DNA from: Candidatus Woesearchaeota archaeon
Lineage (GTDB): Archaea > Nanobdellota > Nanobdellia > Woesearchaeales > JAFGPW01
Assembly (NCBI GenBank): GCA_016935985.1
Contig: JAFGPW010000006.1
Location: 89,047 to 153,046, forward strand
Length of the DNA: 64,000 nucleotides
Direction of reading: 5' to 3'
Shown piece by piece: positions 3,021-20,160 of this stretch (positions within the stretch are counted from its first letter, which is position 1; every line of letters begins with the position of its first letter). A program made the position numbers and the translations under genes. The notes beneath the pieces were generated by a model. The model did not search any database. It was not told the origin of the DNA and was given only the letters and a program-made list of their open reading frames with translations.

Positions 3021-3263
3021 CAGCGAACCTCGCCCATATCTTGGGCATAATGCCTATTTAATACTTGCTACATATATGCCATGCCGGGCTTCGCCTCACC
3101 TTTATATATGAGAAGCGATTCTCATGATCACAGCATGCTAATCGCACGCGGAACGGACGCTGGTTCTATCATCATTATCCGGTGAGAGCCCCTTTCTCAG
3201 GGCTCCTGCAGCGAAACATTTAAAGGGCAGCATCCGCTCGCGTGGAAGGCAGAAGGGACAACC

Positions 3264-6200
3264 ATGGCAGAAGGCTACGACCCGCAGGAGATCGAGGCCG
3301 GCATCCTCAGGCACTGGAGGAAGGAGCAGACCTATCAGAAGGCCAAGGACCGGGGGAAGGGCAAGCCGCAGTGGTACTTCCTCGACGGCCCGCCCTACAC
3401 CTCAGGGAAGGTGCATATCGGCACCGCCTGGAACAAGTCCCTCAAGGACGCGATCCTGCGCTACAAGCGCATGAAGGGGCTCGACGTCTGGGACCGGGCG
3501 GGCTACGACATGCACGGCCTCCCCACTGAGAACGCCACGCTGCGCAAGCTTGGCATAGAGACCAAGGAGGAGGTCGAGCGTTTAGGGGTGCCGCGGTTCA
3601 TCGGGGAATGCAAGCGGCTCTGCGTCGAGAACATGCTCCTCATGAACGAGGACTTCCAGCGCCTCGGCGTCTGGATGGACTTCGAGGGCGCCTACCAATC
3701 CATCAGCAAGGAATTCATGGAGGGCGAGTGGTGGCTGATCAGGAAGGCGCACGAGAACGGCCGGCTGTACGAGGGCCTTCGCACCATGACCTGGTGCCCG
3801 ATATCCGAGTCCGCGCTCGCCAAGCACGAGCTCGAGTACAGGACCGTCGAGGACGACTCCATCTTCGTCAAGATGCTGATCGAGGGCACCGAGGATGAGT
3901 ACCTCGTCATCTGGACGACGACGCCGTGGACGATCCCGTTCAACCTCGCCATCATGGCAGGCCCTGACATCGACTATGTCAAGGTCAAGGTCGAAGGCAC
4001 CGGCGAGAAGTGGGTAGTCGCGAGCAAGCTCATCGGCGTCTTCATGGGAGGCGTCGTCGACAGGAAGTACGAGGTTGTCGAGGAGATGAAAGGGACCGAC
4101 CTCGAGGGCTTGCGGTACGTGCACCCCTTCTATGAGGACCTCAGGAATGTCTACGACCCGATCATCACGGCATCGAAGAAGGCCTTCTCCGTGCTGCTCT
4201 CGAGCGAGTACGTCGACACGAGCGCCGGCACCGGTCTCGTCCACTGCGCGCCCGGCTGCGGGCCCGAGGACTATGAGATAGGGTACCGGAACGGCATCCC
4301 CGCCTTCAACACGATCGACACGAAGGGCGTCTTCCCGGAGGAGATGGGCCCGTTCGCCGGGTGGACCGCGAAGAAGGACGACCCTAGGTTCATCGAGCAC
4401 CTGGAGAGGAAAGGAGCGCTCATCGCGACCACCAGGGTCGAGCACGAGTACGCGCACGACTGGCGGCACCACAAGCCCGTCATCTTCAGGACGACCAAGC
4501 AGTGGTTCTTCAGGATAGAGGACCTGAAGGAGAAGATGATCGCGGCGAACAAGGATATATCCTGGGTCCCGGAGAGCGCGTTCAACGCCTTCGAGTCGTG
4601 GCTCACGAACCTGCGCGACAACTCGATATCGAAGCAGCGGTACTGGGGGACGCCCTTGCCGATTTGGCGGAACGAGGACGACCCCGACGATTACATCGTG
4701 GTGGGATCGGCAGCAGAGCTCGAGAGGCTGTCAGGCACGAAGGTCGACGACCTCCACATACCTGCGGTCGATCCTGTCATCATCAGGAAGGGGAAGAGGA
4801 CCTACCGCCGCGTGCCTGACATCCTCGACGTCTGGGTCGACGCAGGAACGGTCTCATGGAACTGCCTCGACTTCCCGCACCGGAAAGACCTCTTCGAGCG
4901 GCTCTTCCCGGCGGACTTCATCCTCGAGGGGAAAGACCAGTTCAGGGGATGGTTCAACCTGCTCCTCGTCGCCTCAATGGTCTCGATGGAGCGGCCGTCG
5001 TTCAGGAATGTCTATGTCCACGGATTCGTCCAGGACGCGCAGGGGCGGAAGATGAGCAAGTCACTCGGGAATTACATCCTGCCGAGCGAGGTGGTGGACA
5101 CGTATGGCGCCGACGCGTTCAGGTACTACACGATCGGCGGCAGCAAGGCAGGGATAGACCTCAACTACAACTTCGACGACCTGCGCATCAAGCAGCGCAA
5201 CCTCGGCATCCTCTGGAACCTCTCCCGCTTCGTGATCGACTATGCAGCACAGCTCGGCAAGAATCCTCTCGATCTCGACAGAGGGCTCCTGGAGAAAGAT
5301 CTCGGGACCGAGGAGCGCCACATGCTCTCGCGCATGCACTCCGCGATTCGGAAGGCGGGCGATCTCTTTGAGCAGTACCGCATCGACGAGGTCCCAGCCG
5401 TCGTCGAGGATCTCTTCCTCGAGCTCTCGCGCGGCTACATCCAGTTCGTCCGCGAGAAGGCGCAAGGTGACGACGGGAACGAGCAGGAGCTGGTGCTCCA
5501 CACCATATTCTCCGTGCTCGACACCGCGCTCACGCTCTTCGCGCCGATCGCGCCCTTCATCACCGAGCGGATATTCCTCAACCTCAAGGGGCTATTCGGG
5601 CTCCCGGGGAAGAGCGTCCACCTGCGCGCCTGGCCTGAGGCGGACGTCGCGCGAATCGACCGGGCGCTGGAGAAGGAGATGGCGATCGCCGAGGAGGTCA
5701 TCCAGTCGGCGCTCAACGCGCGCGAGCGCGCGAACCTCGGGGTCAGATGGCCGGCAAAAGAGCTCGTGCTCACGACGACCGACAGGGGGATCATCGCCGC
5801 TGTCGAGCGGATGCGCGACCTTATCAAGGGCCAGGTGAACGCGAAAGACATCACCATCGTCCCGTCGTTTCACGCGGTGCGTCTCTCGGTGCGGCCTGAC
5901 TACAGGCAGATCGGGCCCGACTTCGGCGAGCGAGCGCCGCGGATCATCGCGAAGCTCGCGTCAGAGTCGGCAGCGACCATCCTCTCCCATATCGAGCGCG
6001 AGCGCAAGCACCTCATGCGGGTAGACGGCGAGGAGGTGGCGATCGTGAAGGAGCACCTCATCGTCGAACGCACGGTCGACGACCGGTATGTGGAGAGCCC
6101 GACGCGGCATGGCTTCGTCTACCTCGACACCCTGCGCGACGACGAGCTCGACGGGGAGGGCTTCGCGCGCGAGATCATGCGCAGGACCCAGGCGCTCCGG

Positions 6201-6419
6201 AAGAAGGCAGGTCTCGAGAAGAGGGACCGGATCGACCTTTTCCTCCGGCTGGGGAAGGGGCTCTACCGGCTGGTCAAGCCGCACGAGAAGGCGATCGCGG
6301 GAAAGACCGGCGCCTCGCGCATCCAACTCGCGACCGAGGATCTCAAGGGCGACTGGGAGCACGCGTCAGAGCAGAAGGTAAAGGGCGAGCGCTTCGATAT
6401 CTACCTGAAGAAGGCGTGA
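3264..6419 (+). CDS. ileS: Isoleucyl-tRNA synthetase (archaeal/eukaryal type)
   Basis: 1051 aa; class I aaRS HIGH-like motif (PPYTSGKVHIGTAWNK), KMSKS motif (GRKMSKSLGN), editing and anticodon-binding regions. Confidence 0.95.
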   Translation: MAEGYDPQEIEAGILRHWRKEQTYQKAKDRGKGKPQWYFLDGPPYTSGKVHIGTAWNKSLKDAILRYKRMKGLDVWDRAGYDMHGLPTENATLRKLGIETKEEVERLGVPRFIGECKRLCVENMLLMNEDFQRLGVWMDFEGAYQSISKEFMEGEWWLIRKAHENGRLYEGLRTMTWCPISESALAKHELEYRTVEDDSIFVKMLIEGTEDEYLVIWTTTPWTIPFNLAIMAGPDIDYVKVKVEGTGEKWVVASKLIGVFMGGVVDRKYEVVEEMKGTDLEGLRYVHPFYEDLRNVYDPIITASKKAFSVLLSSEYVDTSAGTGLVHCAPGCGPEDYEIGYRNGIPAFNTIDTKGVFPEEMGPFAGWTAKKDDPRFIEHLERKGALIATTRVEHEYAHDWRHHKPVIFRTTKQWFFRIEDLKEKMIAANKDISWVPESAFNAFESWLTNLRDNSISKQRYWGTPLPIWRNEDDPDDYIVVGSAAELERLSGTKVDDLHIPAVDPVIIRKGKRTYRRVPDILDVWVDAGTVSWNCLDFPHRKDLFERLFPADFILEGKDQFRGWFNLLLVASMVSMERPSFRNVYVHGFVQDAQGRKMSKSLGNYILPSEVVDTYGADAFRYYTIGGSKAGIDLNYNFDDLRIKQRNLGILWNLSRFVIDYAAQLGKNPLDLDRGLLEKDLGTEERHMLSRMHSAIRKAGDLFEQYRIDEVPAVVEDLFLELSRGYIQFVREKAQGDDGNEQELVLHTIFSVLDTALTLFAPIAPFITERIFLNLKGLFGLPGKSVHLRAWPEADVARIDRALEKEMAIAEEVIQSALNARERANLGVRWPAKELVLTTTDRGIIAAVERMRDLIKGQVNAKDITIVPSFHAVRLSVRPDYRQIGPDFGERAPRIIAKLASESAATILSHIERERKHLMRVDGEEVAIVKEHLIVERTVDDRYVESPTRHGFVYLDTLRDDELDGEGFAREIMRRTQALRKKAGLEKRDRIDLFLRLGKGLYRLVKPHEKAIAGKTGASRIQLATEDLKGDWEHASEQKVKGERFDIYLKKA

Positions 6420-7283: not shown

Positions 7284-8239
7284 GGGTCATGGCGCCGAGG
7301 ATCTCCATCATCGTCCCGACGCTCGATGAGGAGGAGTACCTGCCAAAGCTCCTCGAATCGGTCAGGCACCAGACCTTCAGGGACTATGAGATCATCGTCG
7401 CCGACGCCGGGTCGTCTGACCAGACCCGCGCGATCGCGCGCGCCTACGGCGCGAAGGTCGTCGATGGAGGGATGCCCGGCGCCGGAAGGAACGCGGGCGC
7501 GAGAGCGGCGAGGGGCGAGCTCCTCTTCTTCTTCGACGCTGATGTCAAGATACCGAAGGAGTTCCTGCGAAAGGCCTACGACGAGATGCAGGAGCGCTTC
7601 CTGGACTTCGCCACCTGCGAATTCCGCCCGCTCTCGACGCATGTCCTCGACCGGTTCATCTGCAACCTCTTCAACGCGAACATCAAGATGATGCAGTACT
7701 CGGACCCGCATGCGATGGGGTTCGCGATCTTCGTGACGCGGCGGCTCTTCGAGCGGGTCGGCGGCTTCGACGAGACGATCCGGGTGTCCGAGGACCACGA
7801 CTTCGCGCGCCGGGCGAGCGTCTACCGGCCGGTTCGCGTGCTCCATTCGACGACGCTCTCCGTCTCCGTGCGCCGGCACATGAAGGAAGGGAGGCTCGCC
7901 TACCTCAACAAGTCCCTCAGGATCGTGCTGTTCCGGTTCTTCAGGGGAGAGCTGCGCGACGACATCATCGAGTACGAGTTCGGCTACGGGAAGAGGAAGC
8001 CTATCGACGACAAGCTGCGCAGGATGGAGCGCCAGCTCGAGAGCATGAACCGGAAGTACAACCACTGGGCGAAGCGGCACCTCAAGGGGGACGGGCTGAG
8101 GATTGAGGAAGGCCTCCGGAAATTCTACGGCCAACTCGATGCGCTCAACCGGCGCTTCGTCGGCTTCGTCACAGCAAAGAGGGGTCGTCCACCATCTCAG
8201 GATCAGAAAGCGAAGGCTTCTCGGACAAGAGCCTCCTGA
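7280..8239 (+). CDS. Family 2 glycosyltransferase
   Basis: ISIIVPTLDEEEYLPKLLESVRHQTF, DAGSSD and a DAD motif (FFFDADVKIP), typical of GT-A fold GT2 enzymes. Confidence 0.75.
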   Translation: MRVMAPRISIIVPTLDEEEYLPKLLESVRHQTFRDYEIIVADAGSSDQTRAIARAYGAKVVDGGMPGAGRNAGARAARGELLFFFDADVKIPKEFLRKAYDEMQERFLDFATCEFRPLSTHVLDRFICNLFNANIKMMQYSDPHAMGFAIFVTRRLFERVGGFDETIRVSEDHDFARRASVYRPVRVLHSTTLSVSVRRHMKEGRLAYLNKSLRIVLFRFFRGELRDDIIEYEFGYGKRKPIDDKLRRMERQLESMNRKYNHWAKRHLKGDGLRIEEGLRKFYGQLDALNRRFVGFVTAKRGRPPSQDQKAKASRTRAS

Positions 8240-8501
8240 CGGTCTTCTTGAAGGCCTCGATCTGCTTCTCGGTGAGCGAGTTCTGGTTGATCGCCTTGAT
8301 CTTGATGTCCCGTAGGAACGGGTCCATGCGATACAGATCCTCGGGGATGTCGCACAGCTTCGATAGCTCGGGGTCCCTGATCTTCCCGGCAAGCTGCCCC
8401 TTCTGGCAGTCGTAGCAGACCGGGAACCGGTTGCGCGTCGTCGTGAGCACGAAGTTCCTGCGGCATCGCACGCACTTCTGCTTGAATCTGGGCCGTGGCA
8501 T
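8169..8501 (-). CDS. Zinc-ribbon-containing hypothetical protein
   Basis: Only the C-terminal 110 aa of track ORF 8169-8756 look coding (MPRPRFKQKCVRCRRNF...FPVCYDCQ); the upstream part is a GC-shadow. ATG at 8499-8501. Confidence 0.4.
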   Translation of the reverse strand: MPRPRFKQKCVRCRRNFVLTTTRNRFPVCYDCQKGQLAGKIRDPELSKLCDIPEDLYRMDPFLRDIKIKAINQNSLTEKQIEAFKKTVRRLLSEKPSLSDPEMVDDPSLL

Positions 8502-8502
8502 C

Positions 8503-8931
8503 TTAACGGTACATCTCCTTGCCTTCGCGCCTGAGCTTCCGGTGCTTGAAGAGGTCATAGACCCCAGCGACCAGTTGCGGGACGATCCTGCCGCCGAGGA
8601 GCGCGATGCCGCCGGCGATCGCGCCGCCGTACGTGAGCGCCTTGTAGACCAGAGAATCATAATCGACCCGTGGATTCGAGTAGTCCTTGAAGGTGGTTCC
8701 CCGATAGCCGTTGCCGCCGAAGGTCTTCTTCCCCGAGACAGCGCTGTAGCCGGCACCGATGGGGTCCACGCACATCTTGAACCCGTCGACGAGACCGCGG
8801 ACGATGGTGTCGATCGTGCTGTAGCGGGGCTTCAGGGCATCTCCCATGTCGAGCGCAGGGGACATGCGAGACAGGGAGGCACAGCCCATATTTAAAGCCT
8901 CCTCCAGAAGGTTTATATAATGCCATTCCAT
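8503..8931 (-). CDS. Hypothetical small protein with Gly-rich C-terminal hydrophobic segment
   Basis: Coding-like part of track ORF 8503-9165 starts at MEWHYINLLEEALNMGCA (ATG 8929-8931). Confidence 0.35.
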   Translation of the reverse strand: MEWHYINLLEEALNMGCASLSRMSPALDMGDALKPRYSTIDTIVRGLVDGFKMCVDPIGAGYSAVSGKKTFGGNGYRGTTFKDYSNPRVDYDSLVYKALTYGGAIAGGIALLGGRIVPQLVAGVYDLFKHRKLRREGKEMYR

Positions 8932-9025
8932 CTCCTCATGGATAAAGGGGTGAACGAGCCCCGGCTGGTTCTCGGTTGGGATATTGATAGGTTTAGGTGA
9001 TAGGTTTAGGGCAAAGGTGATCAGA

Positions 9026-10165
9026 ATGACGAAGAGGGTGATAGGAATCCTTACCGGTGGCGGCGACGCCCCAGGCCTCAACAACGCGATAAAGCAGGTT
9101 GTCAACAGCGCTGCCGGCGAGTTCATCATAGAAGGCATCACCGAAGGATGGAAGGGAGCGATCATGATGACGAAGGGGGAGGATCCGCGGGTCTATACCC
9201 TACCGCTCATCACCAATCAGGTCAGGAGGATCGACCGCACCGGAGGGACAATCCTCATGTCGAGCAGGGCGAATCCCTTCAATTATGGGGGAGAGGACCT
9301 GTCCGACAAGGTCGCCGGTTTCCTCAGCGAGCGCTATCATGCCGTGATCGCGCTCGGCGGCGAGGACACGCTCGGCGCAGCGGGAAAGCTCTACGCAAAA
9401 GGGCTCGATATCATAGGCATCCCGAAGACCATCGACAAGGACCTCTGCCAGACGCGCTTCACGCTCGGCTTCGACACCGCGACGAACATCATCAAGGACC
9501 ACGTCATCAGCCTCAAGACCCCTGCCGGCTCGCACGGCGAGGTCTACTTCATCGAGGCGATGGGCAGGAACGCGGGCCACCTCACCTATTGGGGAGGGAT
9601 CGGCGCGAACGCCCATTTCATCACCATCCCCGAGGCTGAGATCGACGCAGAGAGGCTCATCGAGGCGATCGAGCGGCGCAGGGGTTCGCTTGTCAAGAGA
9701 CGCGGCTACTCCCTCGATGGGCTCCGCTACACCATCGTCGTCGTCTCAGAAGGGACGCGCTTTTCGGGAGTCGGCCAGATCACGAAGAAGACGATCGACC
9801 CGCACGGCAACCAGGAGCTCGGCGACGGGCTCGTCGCGCTCTATCTCCAGAGGAAATACAAGGAGCTGACCGGCTGCACGGCGAAGACCGAGGTCATCGG
9901 CCGCAGGCAGCGCGGCGGCTCGCCGAGCGCCTATGACAACCTGCTCGGCATCCTCCTCGGCCAGAAGGGGGTCGATCTCATACGGCATGGGGATTTCGGA
10001 AGGATGGCGACCTTCAACGGCGAGACCGTCGGCGACGTCCCGCTCGAGTCGGTGATCGACAAGATACGCATCCTTGACGCCGACAAGGTCTACGACCCGA
10101 AGAGGTACCGACCGATCATCGCGGCGAACAACCGGCTCTATCATGAGATAGAGGTCAGCAAGTGA
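9026..10165 (+). CDS. pfkA: 6-phosphofructokinase, PFK-A family (ATP- or PPi-dependent)
   Basis: GILTGGGDAPGLN, GGEDTLG and IGIPKTIDKDL motifs. First ATG at 9026; the track start at 8984 is a TTG. Confidence 0.85.
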   Translation: MTKRVIGILTGGGDAPGLNNAIKQVVNSAAGEFIIEGITEGWKGAIMMTKGEDPRVYTLPLITNQVRRIDRTGGTILMSSRANPFNYGGEDLSDKVAGFLSERYHAVIALGGEDTLGAAGKLYAKGLDIIGIPKTIDKDLCQTRFTLGFDTATNIIKDHVISLKTPAGSHGEVYFIEAMGRNAGHLTYWGGIGANAHFITIPEAEIDAERLIEAIERRRGSLVKRRGYSLDGLRYTIVVVSEGTRFSGVGQITKKTIDPHGNQELGDGLVALYLQRKYKELTGCTAKTEVIGRRQRGGSPSAYDNLLGILLGQKGVDLIRHGDFGRMATFNGETVGDVPLESVIDKIRILDADKVYDPKRYRPIIAANNRLYHEIEVSK

Positions 10166-10184
10166 AGGGAGCGGCAGGGGGGAG

Positions 10185-10787
10185 AGGATCATCGAGTTCG
10201 TCTGCACCGCGAACCGCGGCAGGTCGCCGTTCGCCGAGTATTTCGCGAACGAGCATCTCGTGAAGATAGGCGCCGACGGCCTCATCGCGATATCGAGCGG
10301 GTCGCACCCCGACCTCCTCCGCAAGGGATGGATGGCGCCGCCCGACAGGCTCATCATCAGGCGCGCGGTCGAGCGCGAGATCTATGACCCGACCCTGCGG
10401 CCGAAGATAACCGAAGCGACCGTCCTCCATAATGCGGAAGGGACCAGTTCGCTGTATGACATCGCATACGTCCGGTTAAGCGATGAGGAGAAGGACCATC
10501 GGGCATCGATGGAGAAGGAGCTCGATATCGAAGGCAAGCTCAAGACGATCCCAGAGCAGACCGTTGCGCGGCCTGAGACGATCGCGGCGGTCTCCCTGTC
10601 GCCGCGGAATGGGGAGAAGGCGAAGGATATCTATCATGCCGTCTGGCTCGATCCGGCGTCTACCCCCTCGACATCCAGAACACCTTCGGGAGGGTACGCC
10701 GATTACCAGAAGGCGATATTCTCTATGAAGGAGCGCGTCCTGAGGCTCGTCGACCGCATCATTTTCGGATACCGGAAAAACCTTTAA
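10185..10787 (+). CDS. Low-molecular-weight phosphotyrosine phosphatase / ArsC-like family protein (CX5R P-loop); start codon unresolved
   Basis: In-frame upstream extension of track ORF 10260-10787 encodes IIEFVCTANRGRSPFAEYFA (CX5R signature). The frame is open back to a TAG at 10149-10151, but there is no ATG/GTG/TTG upstream of the motif; it begins immediately after the pfkA stop. Confidence 0.45.
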   Translation, partial: RIIEFVCTANRGRSPFAEYFANEHLVKIGADGLIAISSGSHPDLLRKGWMAPPDRLIIRRAVEREIYDPTLRPKITEATVLHNAEGTSSLYDIAYVRLSDEEKDHRASMEKELDIEGKLKTIPEQTVARPETIAAVSLSPRNGEKAKDIYHAVWLDPASTPSTSRTPSGGYADYQKAIFSMKERVLRLVDRIIFGYRKNL

Positions 10788-10812
10788 AAACCTTGACGCC
10801 TACCCTCTGGGC

Positions 10813-12282
10813 ATGGGGGACCGCTGGACCTATCTCTGGAGCACCGACACATCCCTCTATTTCACCTGGATAGAATTCACCAAGCACTCGATATTCCGCA
10901 GGATCGACTACACGAAGCTGCCGGGAAACGAGCATCGGAACGTGCTCTGCTATGCCAAGAACGGCTTCGTCGAGCGCTACGGCCTCGCCGATGAGGTGCG
11001 GCGCGCCGCCGAGCACGGCACCCGCCTCTTCGACAGGCGGACGGCAGAGGACCTGTTCGCCGCAGCGAGGAGAGCCCGTGAGCATCATGACGCCTTCGTC
11101 GCGAAGGTGAGGGGGAAGGAATTTGCGGAGGCTTCGAACGATGAGATCCTCAGGCTCTTCATCGAGCTCGTCGACACCTGGGGCCTGGTCATCAATCACT
11201 TCCGCTTCACGAGGCCCGAGTTCCTCGTCCATCAGGAGACCCTGCTGCGCGAGACGATCAGGAAGGCGCTCGGCGACGAGCGGCTCGAGGAGCGGTTCGC
11301 GCTGCTCACGACGCCTGCCGAGGTCGACCCGATCGGCGAGGAGGAGATCGCGATCCGCAGGCTCGTCCTCGAGGCGATACCGACAGACGAGCGCCTGCTG
11401 GCGCACGCCCTCGACTATCCCTTCCTCTTCCCGAACACCTTCACCCAGGGCGAGGCTCTCCATTACCTGAAGATCAGGGTGCAGCGGCTGGTGCAGGAGG
11501 GCATCGGCACGCTCGAGCGGGAGGCCGATGGGATCGAGGAGCGGAAGCGCGCGCTGCACGAGCGCCAGGAGCGGCTTCTCAAGGATATCGGGGACGACGC
11601 CGCGCGACACCTTTCCTGGCTCTTAAAGGAGTGCGCGCTCGAGCGGCTGCGGCTGGAAGGCTGCTGGGCAGGGATCGAGTACGCCGCGCTCCCGCTCGTG
11701 CGGGAGGCCGCATCGAGGGTCGGCCTCCCCCCAGAGGAGTTCGCGCGGACCTACCGGCTCGAGGAGGTCGAGGCGTTCCTGCGGAAAGGGGCACGGTTGC
11801 CGGCTCTCGAGCTCGAGCTGCGCAAGGCCTATTATCTCGTCAGGCTCAGGGACGGCGTCCTCTCCTTCCATTCAGGCAGGGAAGCGAAGGACCTCGCGAG
11901 GGACGAGCTCGGCCGGCTCATCGGCGATGTGGCAGCCGACGAGGCGGTCGGCGCCTGCGCGAATCCGGGGAAGGCGCAAGGGACGGCACGGCTCGTGCCA
12001 ATCAGGAGCGTCAGCGACATCGTGAACGCGGAGCGCCGCTTCATGCAGGGTGATATCCTCATCACCCAGGCGGTCCAGCCGAACATGATCTTCCTCGCGA
12101 AGAAGGCAGGCGCGATCGTCACCGACGAGGGCGGCGTCGTGTCGCACGCCGCGATGATCGCGCGCGAGCTCGGCATCCCCTGCATCGTCGGGACCGGCAT
12201 CGCGACCAAGGCCTTCAGGGAGGGCGAGACGGTCGAACTCGACGCAGGCAAAGCCACAGTCCGCAGGATTGTGCAGAGTTGA
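10813..12282 (+). CDS. PEP-utilizing-enzyme mobile (swivel phosphohistidine) domain protein with uncharacterised ~370-aa N-terminal domain
   Basis: C-terminus GGVVSHAAMIARELGIPCIVGTGIATKAF matches the PEP-utilizers swivel domain (His carrier). The N-terminal region lacks ATP-grasp/PPDK_N glycine-rich motifs. Confidence 0.65.
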   Translation: MGDRWTYLWSTDTSLYFTWIEFTKHSIFRRIDYTKLPGNEHRNVLCYAKNGFVERYGLADEVRRAAEHGTRLFDRRTAEDLFAAARRAREHHDAFVAKVRGKEFAEASNDEILRLFIELVDTWGLVINHFRFTRPEFLVHQETLLRETIRKALGDERLEERFALLTTPAEVDPIGEEEIAIRRLVLEAIPTDERLLAHALDYPFLFPNTFTQGEALHYLKIRVQRLVQEGIGTLEREADGIEERKRALHERQERLLKDIGDDAARHLSWLLKECALERLRLEGCWAGIEYAALPLVREAASRVGLPPEEFARTYRLEEVEAFLRKGARLPALELELRKAYYLVRLRDGVLSFHSGREAKDLARDELGRLIGDVAADEAVGACANPGKAQGTARLVPIRSVSDIVNAERRFMQGDILITQAVQPNMIFLAKKAGAIVTDEGGVVSHAAMIARELGIPCIVGTGIATKAFREGETVELDAGKATVRRIVQS

Positions 12283-12434
12283 AAGTTTATTCTTAGAGGT
12301 TTCGAGCATCCACTGGACTCTTCGATAACAGCTCAGAATGCGTTTTTCGGCCTGCTGAACCTATGTGATGGGCGCACTGGACACAGGACTCGCTGTTGAG
12401 AGATATATATAGGCGCTCGTCCATCCCCAGGGGC

Positions 12435-12902
12435 ATGAAACAGAGAACTGTGGCCAAGGACATCCCGCTCTCTGAGGTGACGTTCCGAAAGTACGAGCGG
12501 CCGTCGGGGCTGCCGCCGCGGGAGCTCGTGAAGAAGCTCTGCCTGTCGGTCGGGCTGCTCCAGCCCGGCGACTCGCGGGACATCGTGGTGGACGTGCTCC
12601 ACGCGCTCATCATGGCGGAGCGGGAACTCTCGTCTGTCGAGGTCAGAGGCAGTGTCATACGCCTGCGCGAGGACGCGGGGCTCGCCCTCGCCGGAATCGC
12701 CGCCTCGAACATACGTCGGCAGCTCAAGCGCCTGCGCGAAATCTACGTCGTCGAGAAGGTCAAGAACAGCTACCGCATCACCGAGATGGCGCCGATCGGC
12801 GAGGCGTTCGAGGAGAAGGTGGAGCGTTTCCTGCTGCCGTCGATCATGGACAGGGTGAAGGAATACATCGACGCGGTCGACCAGTTGCGGCCGGGCGGCT
12901 GA
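12435..12902 (+). CDS. Hypothetical protein
   Basis: ATG at 12435, ~25 nt downstream of the TATA-like atatatatagg (12405-12415); 155 aa, no recognisable motifs. Confidence 0.4.
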   Translation: MKQRTVAKDIPLSEVTFRKYERPSGLPPRELVKKLCLSVGLLQPGDSRDIVVDVLHALIMAERELSSVEVRGSVIRLREDAGLALAGIAASNIRRQLKRLREIYVVEKVKNSYRITEMAPIGEAFEEKVERFLLPSIMDRVKEYIDAVDQLRPGG

Positions 12903-13310
12903 TCACCTTTTGTAGTGCGCCTCGAATGCGGCGACGATTGCACTCACCGGCACTGGCTTGATGAGGATCTCCTTCACTTTTGCCTCTTCGACATACTTCT
13001 TATAGACACCTTCCTGGGTGGTCATGGCGACTATCGGGATCCCTTTCGCCCTCGTGAAGACCGGATCGGAATACAGCGTGTCGATGATGGTCGTTCCTAC
13101 TCCGGACCTTGCCGGCGGCTCTTTGAAGTTGTAGTCAAGGAAGATCAGGCCGGCATCCTGATGGTTGCTGATCAGTTCGAGTCCTGAGGGCACATCGAAG
13201 GCGGTGAGAACGGTGTGCGGCTTCGCCTTGTAGTGTTGATGCTCAGTGAATATACTATCGAAAAGCCCGGTGATGCCCTTCTCGTCGTCAATCACGAGTA
13301 TTTTTACCAT
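12903..13310 (-). CDS. Stand-alone response regulator receiver (CheY-like REC) domain protein
   Basis: MVKILVIDDEKGITGLF...LIFLDYNF...TGIPIVAMT: phospho-acceptor Asp context and (beta/alpha)5 REC pattern. Confidence 0.7.
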   Translation of the reverse strand: MVKILVIDDEKGITGLFDSIFTEHQHYKAKPHTVLTAFDVPSGLELISNHQDAGLIFLDYNFKEPPARSGVGTTIIDTLYSDPVFTRAKGIPIVAMTTQEGVYKKYVEEAKVKEILIKPVPVSAIVAAFEAHYKR

Positions 13311-13376
13311 GGTGGCAGGAGGAAGGTGCGAACTATATTTAAGGCTTTCTATTTAGTGCCACTTTATAGTGACAAA

Positions 13377-13643
13377 TTAATGGACAGAAGGTGCGGTGGC
13401 ACCTGTCCTCGCCGCGAGAAGGGTCCAGACACCCCAGCCGATCACGATCGAGACCGTGATGACGAAGCCGAGCATGAGGTCAGGGACCGTGAACGAGAGG
13501 AGCTCTGCGTTCCAGGCGTGGTCGATCACGCCGAAGGCGGCGGCGCCGTAGAGGAGCAGTGAGAGCTTGGAGTGGTCCTTCCCGCGCCCGAACAGGCCGG
13601 AATGGAGTATAGCGGTGAGGAGCGGGACGACGTAGCATGCCAT
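13377..13643 (-). CDS. Small membrane protein (2 predicted TM helices)
   Basis: 88 aa, two hydrophobic helices. Confidence 0.4.
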   Translation of the reverse strand: MACYVVPLLTAILHSGLFGRGKDHSKLSLLLYGAAAFGVIDHAWNAELLSFTVPDLMLGFVITVSIVIGWGVWTLLAARTGATAPSVH

Positions 13644-13658
13644 GGGAATCCACCTCTT

Positions 13659-14663
13659 TCAATCCCTCTTTTTATCTCGTTTGATTTCTTTTAGTATGAT
13701 GTTCGGAAAGTAGGAATATTTATAGATTTTGATTGCCTTGTAGTAGAAGAAGGACCTGACCTTTTTAGGGAAGAGTGCGCGAATCTCCTCGATGAGGGCG
13801 TAGAACGCGCTTTGGCTTTCCAGCTCGCAGTCGAACTCGAAGTCGCTCCCTCCAATCGTGACGTCGCGATACAGGATGTGCGGGTGCTCGACGATGAACC
13901 GGTCGAGCGCAGGGATGATGCTCGGATCCTCGAGCAGCAGGTCGACCTTGTAGTATTCGAGACCGAGCTCGTGGAAGTTGATTATCGCCCGGTAGGCGAC
14001 GATAACCTTGGATTTCTCTAGCCGCTTGAGCCGGTATTTGATGGTATTGATGGGCGTGTCAAGGCGTTTCGAAAACTCGACGAGCGATATCCGAGCCTCT
14101 GTTGATATCTCTTTGAGGATCCTGATATCGGTGTCATCATAGTCGAAGATCTCATGGCTTCCTGTCGACAATGCGGTTTGGTCATGGAGCTTCACGTCGA
14201 CGAGGTAATTATGGAAGTACTGGATGAAATCGGAGAAGACGCTGAAATGCTTGTCGATGACATACTCCCGGTATTGTCCGAGAAAGGCCTCGTAGGTCTT
14301 CTGGTATGCGCGGAGATCCTTGACCAGGAGGCCGATAGCGAGCTCATAATGCCCGTCGGTATGGTAGGCGATTATCACCGAGTCCTGGTCCATCAGATAG
14401 TCCAGCATATCCTCCTCAATCTCAGCGGTCGTATTCTGGAGCTTGATGTAGAGGCGGACTAACTGGTAGCCGAGCTTGGTGAAATCGATGAGGGTGATAT
14501 AGCCGGTGATGACTCCCTTTTTTTCCAACTGGGCGATCCGATACCGCACCACATCCCGATTGAGCCGGGTTATCGAGGCAAGCTCGTTGACCGACCGCCT
14601 GCAGTTGCGGTCGAGTTCGAATAGGATACGTTTGTCTTTTTGGTCTATTTTTGTCATTATCAC
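13659..14663 (-). CDS. lrp: Lrp/AsnC-family transcription regulator, tandem duplicated (two HTH_AsnC + RAM modules)
   Basis: Two repeats of the KDxxILxxLxxNxRxSxxELAxxxxLxxxxVxxRIxxLEKxGVI pattern (residues ~5-60 and ~170-225). Confidence 0.8.
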   Translation of the reverse strand: MIMTKIDQKDKRILFELDRNCRRSVNELASITRLNRDVVRYRIAQLEKKGVITGYITLIDFTKLGYQLVRLYIKLQNTTAEIEEDMLDYLMDQDSVIIAYHTDGHYELAIGLLVKDLRAYQKTYEAFLGQYREYVIDKHFSVFSDFIQYFHNYLVDVKLHDQTALSTGSHEIFDYDDTDIRILKEISTEARISLVEFSKRLDTPINTIKYRLKRLEKSKVIVAYRAIINFHELGLEYYKVDLLLEDPSIIPALDRFIVEHPHILYRDVTIGGSDFEFDCELESQSAFYALIEEIRALFPKKVRSFFYYKAIKIYKYSYFPNIILKEIKRDKKRD

Positions 14664-14757
14664 TTAATAAATAAAGATACTATTTAAATATTTCGCAATA
14701 TTAAGTAAAAATTAATGATAAAATATATATTTCTATAAGTCTCTATATAGTAGTAAT
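14664..14757. promoter_or_regulatory. AT-rich divergent promoter/operator region between lrp and the alaE-like gene
   Basis: ~95 nt of >80% AT (taaataaagatactatttaaatatt...ataaaatatatatttctataag) in a ~63% GC genome; multiple TATA-like elements on both strands. Confidence 0.5.
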
Positions 14758-15282
14758 ATGTTGGACGACCTGATACATAGGATCCATGAAAAATATGCTT
14801 TGGTAAGGAACGCGCTTCACGACAAAGAATCCCGCACTTACACCGGCCTGATCGACACCCTGGGAAATGTAACATTTTCCCTCGCAGTCGGCAGCCTCCT
14901 CGACTATTCTTCGGGTCTGGACTGGCGGGGGATTGTAGGGTCAAGGGCTTCAGCGAGCGCGCTCAACACGACCACGGGCGGTCTCTACGGCGGCTGGAGG
15001 GACTACATATTCAGAATCACAAGGACGACCGAGAAGAGCCATTGGCTCAGGAACCGTGGCGCCGACCTGCTCGCGTTCAACACATTCCAGGTGCCGGTCT
15101 ACGCAGTCGCCCTCAGCGTCGGCAGTCTCGTCCAGGAAGGCGAGTTCGATTATTATAAGGTGCTTGAGGGCTGCAAGAACCTCGCCGTTATCTCGCCGCT
15201 CATCGCGCCGACCATGGGCATGTATATGAATCGCGTGAGGAAGTGGTTCGGCGTCAGCACGCCTGAGCAACGGGCAGAATGA
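14758..15282 (+). CDS. AlaE-like L-alanine exporter family membrane protein
   Basis: RDYIFRITR...WLRNRGADLLAFNTFQVPVYAVALSVG aligns by eye with E. coli AlaE (YgaW) RDLFMRAARK...WIKNLADILAYVTFQSPVYVAIL. Confidence 0.55.
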   Translation: MLDDLIHRIHEKYALVRNALHDKESRTYTGLIDTLGNVTFSLAVGSLLDYSSGLDWRGIVGSRASASALNTTTGGLYGGWRDYIFRITRTTEKSHWLRNRGADLLAFNTFQVPVYAVALSVGSLVQEGEFDYYKVLEGCKNLAVISPLIAPTMGMYMNRVRKWFGVSTPEQRAE

Positions 15283-15435
15283 TCACTTCAGGACATGGCC
15301 GCAGGTGTTGCAGACATGGGCCATCTTCTCCTCGTCGAAGGTGGTCGTGATGCCGTACTCTATCTTGGACTCGCACTTCGGGCAATGGGGCTCCAAGTGC
15401 TGCACAGAGTTGAAGAAATTGAACTCCCCGACCAT
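15283..15435 (-). CDS. Small zinc-ribbon protein (50 aa; CPKC...CNTC)
   Basis: Manual translation: MVGEFNFFNSVQHLEPHCPKCESKIEYGITTTFDEEKMAHVCNTCGHVLK*. Below the track's size cut-off; replaces the shadow ORFs 15254-15523(-) and 15295-15498(+). Confidence 0.45.
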   Translation of the reverse strand: MVGEFNFFNSVQHLEPHCPKCESKIEYGITTTFDEEKMAHVCNTCGHVLK

Positions 15436-15537: not shown

Positions 15538-15550
15538 AGTTTTATATACG
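15538..15550 (+). promoter_or_regulatory. TATA box (gttttatatacg) upstream of the polB-like gene
   Basis: Located ~25 nt upstream of ATG 15572. Confidence 0.45.
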
Positions 15551-15571: not shown

Positions 15572-18073
15572 ATGCCGCAGATAACCTTCTTCCTGATAGA
15601 CCTCTTCTACAAGGTGATAGCCGGAAGGCCGACCGTCGTCCTCTATGGCAAGACCCCCCGGCGGGCGCCCATCCTCGTCCATGACACGAGCTTCGAGCCG
15701 TACCTGCTCGCGCGGATCCATCCCTCGAGCTACAACGATTTCGTCGCCAGGGTGAAGAAGCTCGCCTGGACCGAAGAGGAGCGGCGCTATGCGGTGACGA
15801 GGACCGAGCTCGTGAAGCGGAAGGTCGACGGCTACGCGATGCAGCTCATCAAGGTGCACGGCAATGTCCCGAAGGCGGTGGGGCTCATCAAGAACGAGAT
15901 ACAGGGATGGGATATCGTGCAGTCGGTCTACGAGCACGACGTCTCGCTCAAGCGGAGCTATCTCATCGACAAGGGCATCTTCCCGCTCCGGCAGGTGACC
16001 GCGTCCGGCGACTTCATCAGGACCAGGAGCAAGGTGCAGGCATTCCAGGCGGTCAGGGTGGAGCCTGCCGGCGACGAATTCTACCCCGACCCGTCGATCC
16101 TCGCGATGGATGTCGGCACCATGCTGCAGGCAGAGCAGCAGGCGCTCGGGACCGAGAACCCGATCGTGCTCATCTCACTCTACAGCGAAGGGTACCGCAA
16201 GGTGATCACCTGGAAGCGGCACGAGAACGCGAAGGACTATGTCGAGTTCGTGGGGAGCGAGCACGACCTGATCATGCGGTTCAAGGACCTCATCGACCGA
16301 CTGCGGCCTGACATCCTCGTCGGCTTCCATTCCGACATGTTCGACCTGCCGTACCTCATCGCGCGCGCCAGGAAATACAGCATCCGGCTCGACATCGGCA
16401 TCGAATTCTCCCCACCCAGGGTCAGGAAGAACCCGCGGAGCGTGATGATCGCGGGCATCAACCACATCGATCTCGCGAACCTCGGCCGCGGCCTCTATCC
16501 CGAGCTGCTCGGCCTCGAGGAGTTCGACCTCGAGAGCGTCAGGCGCGTGCTCCTGAAGGCCGAGCCGCCGGAGACTGGCCAGAGAGTCCTCGTCAAGGAT
16601 GCGCCCGCCCCTGAGACCAACGCCGCTTCGCTCTGCGCGAAGGAGCACGAGCACGCGCGGCTGATATTCACCCTCAGCCACCGGCTCATGCCCTACCTCT
16701 TCGAGGTGGTGCGCCTCGTCGGCTTTACTCCCTACTCGGTCGCGAAGATGAACACGAGCATGATCGTCGAAGCGTACCTCATGCGCCAGACCCGCCAGTA
16801 CGACGAGGTCATCCTCAGGCGGCCGGGCAGGGGCCTGATCGAGCAGCGGTCAGGGACCGGCGTCCGGACGACCGTCCTCAAGGAGGCTGAGGAGGGGATC
16901 TCAAGCCAGGTCGCGCTCGTCTCCTACGCGAGCAGCTATCCCCATATCATCATCGAGCACAACATCTCCATGGGCGCGCTCAGGTGCCATTGCTGCAGGC
17001 GCGACGACCGGATGGTGCCTGACCTTGAGGAGGAGACCTGGTTCTGCCAGAACCGCCGCGGCTTCATCCCGCACGTGGTGCAGGCGCTCCTCTCGCGGCT
17101 CGAGACGATCGAGGCGATCATCGCGTCGGGCAGGAGCTCTGACCTGCTGCGGATACGGAAGGCGACGATCGAGCAGCTGCTCGCGAGCTCGCACATGGCA
17201 TTCTCCCATACCCATGCGAGATGGTATTCCTACCACTGCGCCCAGGCGGTGCACCGCTACGCGGCGTTCTACACGACGCATATCAGGAAGCGTCTCGAGG
17301 AGAAGGGCATCAGGGTTCTCTACGCGACCGAGTCGCAGCTGCACGTGTCGCTCGAGGGCAGCGGCCTCAACTGGCTCAGGCTCGCGCTCGAGGGGGCTGA
17401 GAGGAGCTACCCCCGCGTGCTCGTCTCGTCCCTTGCAGGACCGTACCTCAAGGCCCTCTACCGGACCGAGAAGGAGGGCGACCGGACGAGGACCGGCTAC
17501 GCGCTCATGGACGACGACGGCACGCTCACGCTCTCCGGCCTCGGGCCCCAGACGCGCACGCTTCCGCCGATCGCAAGGCTCGCCCTGGAGCAGGTCATCT
17601 CCATCCTCTTCAGGCAGGCTGACCGCGAGAAGGCGGCGACCTACATCCGCACGCTCATCAAGCAAGTGAGACAGAAGACCGTGCCTAAGGAGCTGATGAC
17701 GATCACGACGGCGCTCTCGAAGGACATCGACGAGTACGACACCGTCGCCCCGCACGTCGCGGTGGCGAAGCGGATGCGCAGCATCGGAATCCCGGTCGAG
17801 GCCGGGCACACGATCAGCTATATCGTCACCGCAGGCCCTGACAAGGTAGGCCAGCGCGCCCGACTGCCCAGCGAGGTCGCTCCCGGCGGCTATGACCCTG
17901 AGTATTATATCGAGAGCCACATCCTCCCCGCGATCGAGCCGATCCTCGGCATCGTCGGCATGACCCGCGAGGACCTCGAGCTCGACCGCGAGCAGGCGAC
18001 GCTCGGCTCGTTCGTCGAGGGTGAGGGGGAAGGGGATAGGGGAGAAAAGAGGGGGACGGGAAGGGATCCCTAG
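15572..18073 (+). CDS. polB: Family B DNA polymerase homologue with catalytic motifs disrupted (predicted inactivated PolB derivative)
   Basis: 833 aa with PolB architecture: Exo II FDLPYL retained; Exo I FDIET replaced by AMDVGT; motif A DxxSLYPSII replaced by LVSYASSYPHII (Asp lost); motif C YGDTDS replaced by YATESQ (both Asp lost). Confidence 0.8.
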   Translation: MPQITFFLIDLFYKVIAGRPTVVLYGKTPRRAPILVHDTSFEPYLLARIHPSSYNDFVARVKKLAWTEEERRYAVTRTELVKRKVDGYAMQLIKVHGNVPKAVGLIKNEIQGWDIVQSVYEHDVSLKRSYLIDKGIFPLRQVTASGDFIRTRSKVQAFQAVRVEPAGDEFYPDPSILAMDVGTMLQAEQQALGTENPIVLISLYSEGYRKVITWKRHENAKDYVEFVGSEHDLIMRFKDLIDRLRPDILVGFHSDMFDLPYLIARARKYSIRLDIGIEFSPPRVRKNPRSVMIAGINHIDLANLGRGLYPELLGLEEFDLESVRRVLLKAEPPETGQRVLVKDAPAPETNAASLCAKEHEHARLIFTLSHRLMPYLFEVVRLVGFTPYSVAKMNTSMIVEAYLMRQTRQYDEVILRRPGRGLIEQRSGTGVRTTVLKEAEEGISSQVALVSYASSYPHIIIEHNISMGALRCHCCRRDDRMVPDLEEETWFCQNRRGFIPHVVQALLSRLETIEAIIASGRSSDLLRIRKATIEQLLASSHMAFSHTHARWYSYHCAQAVHRYAAFYTTHIRKRLEEKGIRVLYATESQLHVSLEGSGLNWLRLALEGAERSYPRVLVSSLAGPYLKALYRTEKEGDRTRTGYALMDDDGTLTLSGLGPQTRTLPPIARLALEQVISILFRQADREKAATYIRTLIKQVRQKTVPKELMTITTALSKDIDEYDTVAPHVAVAKRMRSIGIPVEAGHTISYIVTAGPDKVGQRARLPSEVAPGGYDPEYYIESHILPAIEPILGIVGMTREDLELDREQATLGSFVEGEGEGDRGEKRGTGRDP

Positions 18074-18085
18074 GCTCTGCAGCGA

Positions 18086-18421
18086 TCACTTCCGCTGGCG
18101 CGCCAGGAACTCGTCGAGCCGACCCTTCAGCTGCTCTTTCCCCATGAAGCCAACGAGGCGCCCCGCTTCCTTCCCGTCCTTGAAAAGGACGAGCGTCGGG
18201 ATGCTCATCACATCGAAACGGGCAGCGGTGGCAGAGCTCGCATCCACGTCGAGCTTGCCGAACCTGAGCTCTGAAGGCCCGTATCCTTTCGAAACATCCT
18301 CGAATATGGGTCCCAGTATCTGGCAGGGACCGCACCAGCCTGCCCAGAAGTCGACGACAGAGGGGCTGCCGCCGGCGATGAAGCCATCGAAGTCCGCATC
18401 AGTGAGTCTTTCAGGTGCCAT
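18086..18421 (-). CDS. trxA: Thioredoxin
   Basis: WCGPC active site; 111 aa. Confidence 0.85.
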   Translation of the reverse strand: MAPERLTDADFDGFIAGGSPSVVDFWAGWCGPCQILGPIFEDVSKGYGPSELRFGKLDVDASSATAARFDVMSIPTLVLFKDGKEAGRLVGFMGKEQLKGRLDEFLARQRK

Positions 18422-19362: not shown

Positions 19363-20160
19363 TCAGTCCAGGTCGGCGAGCGTCACGTCGTCGTCCGGCG
19401 GGAACGGCCGCGGCTCGCGCTTGACCGGCGCCGAGAGAGGGGCCTTCAGGGGCTGATGCGACGGTCGGCGACGCTGGCCGCCGCGCCGTCCGCGGGACCG
19501 GCCTCCAGGCCTGCCGTCAGGCTGGCCGCCGCCGCGCGGCGGGCTCTGGGCCGGAGCCTGCTGCTTCTGGGGCTCGGCCACGGGCTTCGCCCGGTCCTTC
19601 GTACCGTCTGCCGCAGGCTCCTCCTTCGCCGGCCGGGTGCCGGATCTCCCGCGCTTCTCCGTCGACGCGGCGAGGTACTTCTTGAGGTCCTTGCTCATGT
19701 CGGTGAAAAGGTCCGCCTCGCTCTCGAGCATCTGCGAGGTCGTCTTCTTGAAGGATATCACCTCGCACCTGACGCCGTTCGTCTTGAGGTAGTGGAGAAG
19801 CTCCTTGAAGTCGCCGTCGCCAGAGACGAGCACCGCGACGTCGATCTTCGGCGCCATGCGGACCATGTCCATCGCGATCCCCACATCCCAATCGCCCTTC
19901 TTTGCCCCTGACGCGAAGATCTGGAGGTCCTTCGCCCTCGCCTCGATCCCTATATTGTTGAGGGCGTCATGGAAGTTGCCCTCGTCCTTCATGTCCGCCC
20001 GGATCACGTACGCTATCGCGCGGATGAGATTGCGTCCCGCGACCGCGGTCGCGAGTATCGCCTTGAAGTTCACCTTCTTCTTATACAGCTGTTTCGCTGA
20101 GTAGTACATGTTCTGCGTGTCGATGAAGACCGCCACGCGCTGGTCCTTGTGTTGTAGCAT
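19363..20160 (-). CDS. NYN-domain (LabA-like) predicted ribonuclease with Arg/Gly/Pro-rich C-terminal tail
   Basis: VAVFIDTQNMYY...DVAVLVSGDGDF is the LabA/NYN PIN-like motif set; ~90-aa disordered RG/P-rich tail. Confidence 0.7.
   Translation of the reverse strand: MLQHKDQRVAVFIDTQNMYYSAKQLYKKKVNFKAILATAVAGRNLIRAIAYVIRADMKDEGNFHDALNNIGIEARAKDLQIFASGAKKGDWDVGIAMDMVRMAPKIDVAVLVSGDGDFKELLHYLKTNGVRCEVISFKKTTSQMLESEADLFTDMSKDLKKYLAASTEKRGRSGTRPAKEEPAADGTKDRAKPVAEPQKQQAPAQSPPRGGGQPDGRPGGRSRGRRGGQRRRPSHQPLKAPLSAPVKREPRPFPPDDDVTLADLD

Follow-up and report, generated by a model that had tools for sequence, protein, structure and literature searches.

The described family of 'inactivated archaeal B-family polymerases' is PolB2 (Rogozin 2008; Makarova 2014). 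PolB2 forms its own clade, and its gene shares an operon with those for arCOG07300 and an inactivated RadA, and often with arORC2 (PMC4104785); its members lack Exo III, and of the polymerase aspartates they keep that of motif A and one of the two in motif C (PMC7544198). The group was for a long time expected to be inactive, but its member Dpo2 turned out to be a robust polymerase that acts as an extender in translesion synthesis (PMC8764526). Loss of catalysis within the PolB fold is also known from Pol epsilon, whose inactive C-terminal PolB module is essential as a scaffold (PMC7544198), and the inactivated exonuclease domains of Pol alpha and Pol zeta are further analogues. The gene considered here is a PolB-like open reading frame (ORF) encoding 833 amino acids in a 64-kb stretch of contig JAFGPW010000006.1 of Candidatus Woesearchaeota archaeon; this entire stretch is referred to below as the window, and the coordinates of its features are collected in Table 1. 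Compared to canonical PolB3, the encoded protein has substitutions at all of the polymerase and most of the exonuclease catalytic residues and carries an additional C-terminal tail of 18 residues. Taken together, the evidence leads us to favour, with moderate confidence, a reading in which a B3-type PolB decayed at or near its ancestral locus and is now a non-catalytic, PCNA-tethered component of the replisome or of DNA repair.

The catalytic motifs were read from a 26-sequence alignment of the window protein and 25 relatives drawn from Woesearchaeota, other DPANN archaea, Hadarchaeales and Thermococcus. All 25 relatives have intact DIE, Exo II Asp, YxxxD, DxxSLYPS, KxxxNSxYG, DTD, KKxY and RRxW motifs. 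In the window protein, the DxxSLYPS of motif A reads SYASSYPH, with Ser451 in place of the metal-binding Asp and the steric-gate Tyr456 kept, while the KxxxNSxYG of motif B reads EQLLASSHMA, with the Lys, Asn, Tyr and Gly all substituted. The DTD of motif C has become TES (T586 and S588), so that both catalytic Asp residues are gone. KKxY has become RTGY, in which both Lys residues are lost and Tyr643 is kept, RRxW has become TRTL, and the Y-GG region has been lost as well. The DEDDy 3'-5' exonuclease site is also incomplete. Exo I reads DVG instead of DIE, keeping Asp180 and carrying Gly182 in place of the catalytic Glu; Exo II (SDMFD) keeps Asp258; and in Exo III the YxxxD motif reads KEHEH, with the catalytic Tyr replaced by Lys357 and the Asp by His361. 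With neither the Glu of Exo I nor the Tyr and Asp of Exo III in place, the exonuclease should be dead. Rescue as a DEDDh-type exonuclease by His359 or His361 was considered and ruled out, as the H-x4-D spacing is absent and the Exo I Glu has been lost. From its motifs, the window protein is predicted to be unable either to polymerise or to proofread. The motif strings reported in the initial annotation of this gene were reproduced exactly and in place by the translation and the alignment, which also bore out the motif assignments and the loss of the polymerase aspartates. Its statement that all catalytic aspartates are replaced holds for S451, T586, S588 and the Exo III position H361, but not for D180 of Exo I and D258 of Exo II, and the losses in motif B and KKxY go beyond the motifs that it listed.

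Retained catalysis would require the protein to work as a polymerase, as another nucleotidyl transferase or as a nuclease through non-canonical residues, as in PolB2/Dpo2. The precedent of Dpo2, whose activity had not been predicted, lends some support to this idea, as do the presence of Glu587 within the former motif C and the survival of Tyr456 and of the Exo I and Exo II aspartates. However, PolB2 still has the Asp of motif A and one of those in motif C, whereas all three polymerase carboxylates are gone from the window protein, together with the four motif B residues, both KKxY lysines and Y-GG, and only 28-36% of the conserved fingers and palm columns survive. A still-active enzyme is thus highly improbable.

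Despite these losses, the protein retains the features of a full-length PolB. Both PolB domains are recognised by Pfam in N-to-C order and above the gathering cut-off (exonuclease PF03104, E 9.7e-18; polymerase PF00136, E 1.4e-15). The AlphaFold2 model shows a full-length PolB fold with a predicted local distance difference test score (pLDDT) of 84.1 and a predicted template modelling score (pTM) of 0.80, and the top Foldseek match is the P. abyssi PolB 4flu_A, with a template modelling score of 0.79 (query) or 0.86 (target) over 812 aligned columns. The preserved length and architecture that had been noted from the sequence are thereby borne out by Pfam, AlphaFold2 and Foldseek against a solved PolB, as the preserved Exo II motif is by the alignment. 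To Thermococcales PolB (Pfu, KOD, 9°N and P. abyssi; 1qht, 4flu) the likeness extends from length and domain order through the predicted fold to the uracil-pocket residues and the motif resembling a PCNA-interacting peptide (PIP). Retention was expressed as the share of columns at least 80% conserved in 132 active enzymes that the window protein keeps, and it varies strongly by domain: 0.92 in the N-terminal domain, 0.77 in palm-1, 0.75 in the thumb and 0.69 in the exonuclease domain, but 0.36 in the fingers and 0.28 in palm-2, compared to means of 0.86-0.95 in any region for the active enzymes themselves. An earlier pass on the 26-sequence alignment gave similar retention, the N-terminal domain keeping 81-92% over both passes.

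Within the N-terminal domain, the read-ahead pocket for uracil and hypoxanthine is kept at Y13, P43, Y44, P100 and V103, which correspond to Tgo Y7, P36, Y37, P90 and V93, and it shows two conservative changes (Tgo I114 to V124 and F116 to L126). Near the C-terminus, the PIP-like sequence QATLGSFV fits Qxx[LIM]xx[FYW][FYWLIV], and its Q808 and L811 are invariant in all relatives. This region is disordered in the AlphaFold2 model, with pLDDT below 50 from residue 806, as expected of a PIP tail. The motif is followed by the 18-residue tail EGEGEGDRGEKRGTGRDP, for which no counterpart was found in the aligned relatives. Its G+C content at third codon positions (GC3) is 0.56 and its coding log-odds -0.30, as opposed to 0.90 and +0.64 for the remaining gene, and the tail is probably a recent stop-loss extension. 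The extension leaves a gap of just 12 nt to the thioredoxin (Trx) gene, whose convergent orientation had been correctly annotated.

The closest solved relatives are Thermococcales PolBs (1qht, 5h12 and 4flt; E ~1e-87), which align end to end, followed among further Protein Data Bank matches by Pyrobaculum PolB3 (5mdn, 6.5e-44) and Sulfolobus (Sso) PolB1 (1s5j, 1.6e-11). The top homologues are all PolBs of about 800 residues from Woesearchaeota and Nanoarchaeia; isoleucyl-tRNA synthetase (IleRS), NYN and Trx genes recur near the genes for these enzymes and also lie, in rearranged order, near the window gene. When each degenerate protein was placed by itself, using the columns in which active enzymes vary, the window protein nested inside the active clade and was basal in just 2 of 40 replicates. 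By these affinities, it is a descendant of the canonical B3-type PolB of Woesearchaeota. The initial annotation had matched it to the inactivated PolB derivatives already described in archaea, but that family is PolB2, and the match does not hold. The two have in common that they are archaeal PolB homologues, that their polymerase and exonuclease motifs are disrupted and that a non-replicative or structural role has been proposed for them. PolB2, however, is a separate, ancient and shorter clade in which Exo III is absent, whereas the window protein is B3-derived and has an Exo III segment that is present but mutated; the Asp of motif A and one Asp of motif C survive in PolB2 and are absent from the window protein. 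The gene neighbours also differ, comprising AlaE, a 50-residue Zn-ribbon protein, Trx, Trx_3, TrmB and NYN; no RadA-like or ORC gene was found among them, and the PolB2 operon genes arCOG07300 and inactivated RadA do not lie beside the gene. Membership in PolB2 was ruled out by the B3-type nearest relatives, that is, by best-match affinity and not by direct alignment to a B2 reference. Judged from sequence affinities, this is an independent, B3-derived inactivation distinct from PolB2. Among the papers searched, none described inactivated B3 enzymes in DPANN archaea.

The protein has diverged far more than the IleRS encoded in the same window. Active Woesearchaeota PolBs are 50-54% identical among themselves, and the window IleRS, at 49-61% identity across 15 genomes containing both genes, is normal for the group. 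Over the same 15 genomes, the PolB-like protein is 29-34% identical to its counterparts, compared to approximately 48% expected from the regression of PolB on IleRS identity, a residual of -17 points or about 3 standard deviations. Its identities correlate with those of IleRS (r = 0.67), a pattern in keeping with accelerated vertical descent, although differences in rate among lineages may also play a part. When 1.84 billion cluster representatives were searched exhaustively with phmmer, no match above 33% identity was returned, and among 15 billion proteins no match exceeded 34%, making the window protein a singleton. Part of this isolation is due to the organism itself being isolated, since its IleRS reaches at most 59% identity; no IleRS relative above that value was found in a 5.8-billion-protein database. 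The organism is an unusually GC-rich (62%) Woesearchaeote, most related loci having 30-50% G+C.

There are several indications that the gene remains under constraint. In random sequence of the same composition, approximately 22 stop codons would be expected in 833 codons, and the chance of finding none is 2.4e-10; the ORF also contains no frameshifts despite its massive divergence. Its GC3 is 0.90, and a codon model derived from 19 further genes of the window gives it log-odds of 0.635 bits per codon, compared to 0.667 for IleRS and 0.627 for GDH, and the genome-typical codon bias extends to every domain, including the decayed palm and fingers. The gene also has a promoter of its own, as had been annotated. 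Within the window, the octamer TTTATATA is found 13 times, whereas 0.05 occurrences would be expected; 0 of 100 shuffles reached this count, and the octamer is evidently the TATA-box consensus of this organism. One copy ends 24 nt ahead of the PolB-like ATG, which implies a leaderless or near-leaderless transcript. Other copies lie, for example, at 3101, 8912, 22432, 27818, 31025, 41406, 46648/46677 and 60533/60549, mostly just upstream of ORF starts, and several window genes appear to be leaderless. From the intact ORF, the genome-typical codon bias, the consensus promoter and the domain-specific decay, we infer that the gene is transcribed and translated and that its scaffold is under purifying selection.

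These properties bear on the possibility that the gene is a functionless pseudogene in which a stop codon has simply yet to arise. Such a fate could explain an identity 17 points below expectation, the singleton status among 15 billion proteins, the 'hypothetical protein' label at NCBI and a C-terminal tail that looks like stop-loss read-through. It is difficult to reconcile, however, with the intact frame and codon bias in all domains, with a decay that spares the N-terminal domain (0.92) and thumb (0.75) relative to the palm (0.28), with the conserved invariant residues of the PIP-like motif and a TATA box at the right distance, or with the repetition of the same pattern in 11 other proteins, and we regard it as improbable.

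These 11 further degenerate PolB3-like proteins (P0026, P0078, P0085, P0095, P0102, P0110, P0122, P0132, P0150, P0158 and P0187) were identified by screening 153 full-length matches at 19 catalytic positions, with nine or more deviations taken to define a degenerate protein. They are 24-30% identical to the window protein and are encoded in low-GC genomes (33-48% G+C). As in the window protein, the thumb and N-terminal domain are better kept than the fingers and palm, where the losses mainly fall, and all 12 proteins retain a C-terminal Q-x-x-L-x-x-[FYW]-[FIV]; P0026 is an example in which the exonuclease motifs have been kept. The degenerate proteins are closer to active enzymes than to one another (ranks >90), with the exception of the pair P0078/P0132, whose closest active relative, P0067, has its polymerase motifs and a degraded exonuclease. 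No derived catalytic-site states are common to the degenerate proteins, and counts of shared derived states (median 0.19, all conservative changes) were uninformative. In the one-at-a-time placements, they nest in the active clade and are rarely basal, with weak support for each position. The same conversion has apparently occurred in several other Woesearchaeota and Nanoarchaeia lineages, the independence of these events being judged from simple tree placement.

Other proteins in the set show a partial version of these losses. In P0053, P0054, P0062, P0063, P0067, P0075, P0126 and P0152 the polymerase motifs are intact and the exonuclease is degraded, giving them the look of natural exo-minus enzymes, and the position of P0067 as the closest active relative of P0078 and P0132 hints that the exonuclease may decay ahead of the polymerase. 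Directly after the gene for P0187 (L088 5815-9092 / L089 44-3321) come genes for a NUDIX hydrolase and a Ham1-like protein (ITP/XTP pyrophosphatase), neighbours that tie this dead PolB to nucleotide-pool sanitation genes. Annotation of such proteins is inconsistent: among MBN2567353.1, MBN2421962.1, MEM4267726.1 and MFH1409728.1, two carry the label 'hypothetical protein' and the other two 'DNA-directed DNA polymerase'.

The genomic neighbourhood is informative as to whether the gene is a decayed orthologue or an additional copy. Active PolB loci were obtained by scanning species-representative genomes with the patterns [LM]YP[ST]II..HN and MEL.., which need an intact motif A and do not match the degenerate protein, and the neighbourhoods of the resulting 80 loci were counted with 3-kb flanks. 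The active Woesearchaeota and Nanoarchaeia PolBs at these loci are 28-34% identical to the window protein. The recurrent gene order is Trx(-), NYN(-), PolB(+), IleRS(+), with IleRS within 3 kb of the active PolB at 21 of the 80 loci, a divergent NYN gene at 17 and an upstream Trx gene at seven; for most archaea, by contrast, Makarova 2014 reported that PolB3 has no conserved neighbourhoods. In the window, IleRS, Trx and NYN all lie at most 12 kb from the degenerate gene, in rearranged order and orientation and with 9 kb inserted. Decay of the orthologue is favoured because these three genes surround it as they do active PolBs, and decay of the canonical gene in place is most likely the simplest account of the shared neighbourhood. 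In two further cases a degenerate gene is found exactly where the active PolB usually lies, divergently oriented to NYN: P0132 (MBN2421962.1, GCA_016935095.1), from a 33% G+C genome and also present in SRR13394437, and P0122 (MEM4267726.1, GCA_038884615.1), from a 38% G+C genome. Their NYN neighbours are 64% and 57% identical, respectively, to the window NYN. The divergent NYN-PolB pair thus persists even where the PolB is dead, which suggests that the predicted NYN nuclease and PolB are functionally linked.

If the protein folds as a full PolB, it may dock on PCNA through its C-terminal QxxLxxF[FIV] motif, and the thumb together with the N-terminal domain and its near-intact uracil/hypoxanthine pocket may hold primer-template DNA. 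The protein would then have a clamp- and DNA-bound, non-catalytic role at the fork or in repair, and DNA synthesis would be carried out by another polymerase, either PolD or an acquired enzyme such as one of the B7 group, which has been reported in Woesearchaeota (PMC7544198). PolD is the obvious candidate, being widely distributed among DPANN archaea (PMC6355029) and, in several Euryarchaeota, enough to replicate the genome. T. kodakarensis, T. barophilus and M. maripaludis can do without PolB, and a defective PolB allele can do more harm than the loss of the gene (PMC13136892); for the latter reason, the fact that a dead PolB of the clamp-binding type has been stably kept more likely reflects a selected function. 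The Pol epsilon C-terminal module resembles such a protein in having a PolB fold without catalysis that is kept for a scaffolding role in the replisome, the dead half being essential in yeast and the active half not. That module is, however, fused to an active one and binds the B-subunit and CMG through Zn-finger domains, whereas the window protein is not joined to another module, lacks a Zn-binding C-terminal domain and retains a C-terminal tail of the PCNA-binding type, so that the analogy is one of principle and not of homology between the events.

Several points weigh against this reading. On the functional side, PCNA binding, DNA binding and uracil sensing are predicted from motifs alone, and PolB2 is a precedent for a polymerase that was predicted to be dead and proved active (PMC8764526). 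A full uracil pocket is present in just four of the 12 degenerate proteins, so that clamp binding, and not uracil sensing, would be their common denominator, since the PIP-like motif is kept in all 12. A search through IleRS for close relatives that might show intermediate stages of decay yielded none, the nearest IleRS being 59% identical, and for want of a close relative dN/dS (the ratio of non-synonymous to synonymous substitution rates) is not computable. On the side of descent, 11 of the 12 degenerate proteins fall together in a plain neighbour-joining tree built from all columns, as would fit an old paralogue family, and the rearranged neighbourhood, with its 9-kb insertion between IleRS and the gene, may reflect duplication followed by relocation. 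The searches for a second PolB (Pfam on the ten largest other ORFs, and tblastn) covered the 64-kb window, where they found none; the claim of a sole copy reaches no further, and the genome may encode an active PolB elsewhere, or PolD.

A rival reading follows the initial annotation in taking the gene as an extra, inactivated paralogue; it would possibly belong to an old Woesearchaeota-specific dead family and act as a structural or regulatory partner of an active PolB encoded elsewhere. The neighbour-joining cluster and the departure from the Trx-NYN-PolB-IleRS order, with its inserted 9 kb, are what might follow duplication, and PolB2 usually co-occurs with other PolBs (PMC7544198). Against this, no second PolB is present in the window, and three degenerate genes lie in the canonical neighbourhood, two of which stand divergent from NYN exactly as active PolBs do. 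The degenerate proteins are nearer to active enzymes than to each other and share no derived catalytic states, and their single placements nest in the active clade and are rarely basal. The neighbour-joining cluster was rejected as evidence of common origin, as sites that are invariant in active enzymes and saturated in degenerate ones create long-branch attraction, which predicts just such a cluster. A paralogous origin therefore appears unlikely, although by no means negligibly so, and the label 'paralogue' is unproven and probably wrong for a gene set amid the IleRS, NYN and Trx genes of the canonical PolB, with two other degenerate copies adjacent to NYN. Decay of the canonical B3-type gene at or near its ancestral locus remains the reading we prefer.

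The source of the sequence also needs to be considered. The NCBI record for the identical protein is MBN2567353.1 ('hypothetical protein JXB02_04695', Candidatus Woesearchaeota archaeon), encoded on a 162,994-bp contig of a metagenome-assembled genome, and the gene is also found in the Logan assembly of SRR13394437. A metagenomic source and a G+C content of 62%, unusual for Woesearchaeota, might raise the suspicion of an assembly or binning artefact, such as a chimeric contig or a PolB of foreign or viral origin. The gene, however, matches its neighbours in GC and GC3, the flanking IleRS, NYN and Trx are typical of Woesearchaeota at 50-65% identity, and the same gene and context occur in both the NCBI record and the independent Logan assembly, which makes an artefact extremely unlikely.

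Table 1. Positions of the PolB-like gene, its motifs and selected neighbouring genes, numbered from the first nucleotide of the window.
Feature	Residues	Coordinates	Strand	Basis
PolB-like ORF, 833 aa, ATG start, TAG stop		15572..18073	+	ORF call
TATA box TTTATATA		15541..15548	+	Octamer count and position relative to ATG 15572
N-terminal domain, best-conserved part	1-140	15572..15991	+	Column retention
Exo I remnant ILAMDVGT	176-183	16097..16120	+	Alignment
Exo II HSDMFDLPYLI, retained	253-263	16328..16360	+	Alignment
Exo III remnant KEHEH		16640..16654	+	Alignment
Motif A remnant LVSYASSYPHII	449-460	16916..16951	+	Alignment
Motif B remnant EQLLASSHMAFS (dNTP-binding fingers helix)		17171..17206	+	Alignment
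Motif C remnant YATESQ, inside VLYATESQLH	582-591 (VLYATESQLH)	17321..17338	+	Alignment
KKxY (primer-terminus binding) remnant RTRTGY		17483..17500	+	Alignment
PIP-like PCNA-binding motif QATLGSFV	808-815	17993..18016	+	Alignment
Unique 18-aa tail EGEGEGDRGEKRGTGRDP		18017..18070	+	Without counterpart in relatives
Isoleucyl-tRNA synthetase (IleRS)		3264..6419	+	Pfam
Thioredoxin (Trx), convergent with PolB-like gene, 12 nt apart		18086..18421	-	PF00085
NYN-domain gene (predicted nuclease)		19363..20160	-	PF01936

The segment between IleRS and the PolB-like gene (6501-15435, approximately 9 kb), two genes that are adjacent in relatives, encodes ferredoxin-like, GT2 glycosyltransferase, phosphofructokinase, phosphoenolpyruvate-utilising and response-regulator-like proteins, followed by a double-helix-turn-helix regulator of the Lrp/AsnC type, AlaE and the 50-residue Zn-ribbon protein (15283-15435, minus strand). 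A similar double-helix-turn-helix regulator is encoded close to some active PolBs and also to the degenerate PolB of L085. The 14-16 kb stretch of the window has a lower G+C content of 52.5%.

Pseudo-polymerases are already known, and what is apparently new here is the B3 rather than B2 origin and the apparent recurrence across DPANN archaea. The finding bears on the division of labour between PolB and PolD at the archaeal fork, where PolB can be deleted in some species and not in others (PMC13136892). The combination of erased catalysis with a kept fold, clamp tail, promoter and set of genomic partners points to a non-catalytic function of PolB, which deletion genetics cannot easily separate from catalysis. 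The dozen or so degenerate DPANN proteins form a comparative set in which the residues surviving in all members mark functionally relevant surfaces, and they offer an independent example of the conversion of a polymerase into a scaffold, as has been proposed for Pol epsilon and its C-terminal half. In addition, inventories of DPANN replication genes would either count such degenerate PolBs as active polymerases or miss them. The significance of the gene would be greater if it proves to be the only PolB of its genome. It is possible, although we hold this as a tentative and rather doubtful proposal, that the sole canonical PolB became a dead, PCNA-tethered scaffold here and, independently, in at least two other Woesearchaeota lineages with an NYN-adjacent degenerate PolB, with PolD or an acquired polymerase replicating the genome alone and the body of PolB still being needed. 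If true, these proteins would be a natural and recurring archaeal parallel to the half of eukaryotic Pol epsilon that is essential although non-catalytic, and PolB would have a conserved non-enzymatic role at the archaeal replication fork.

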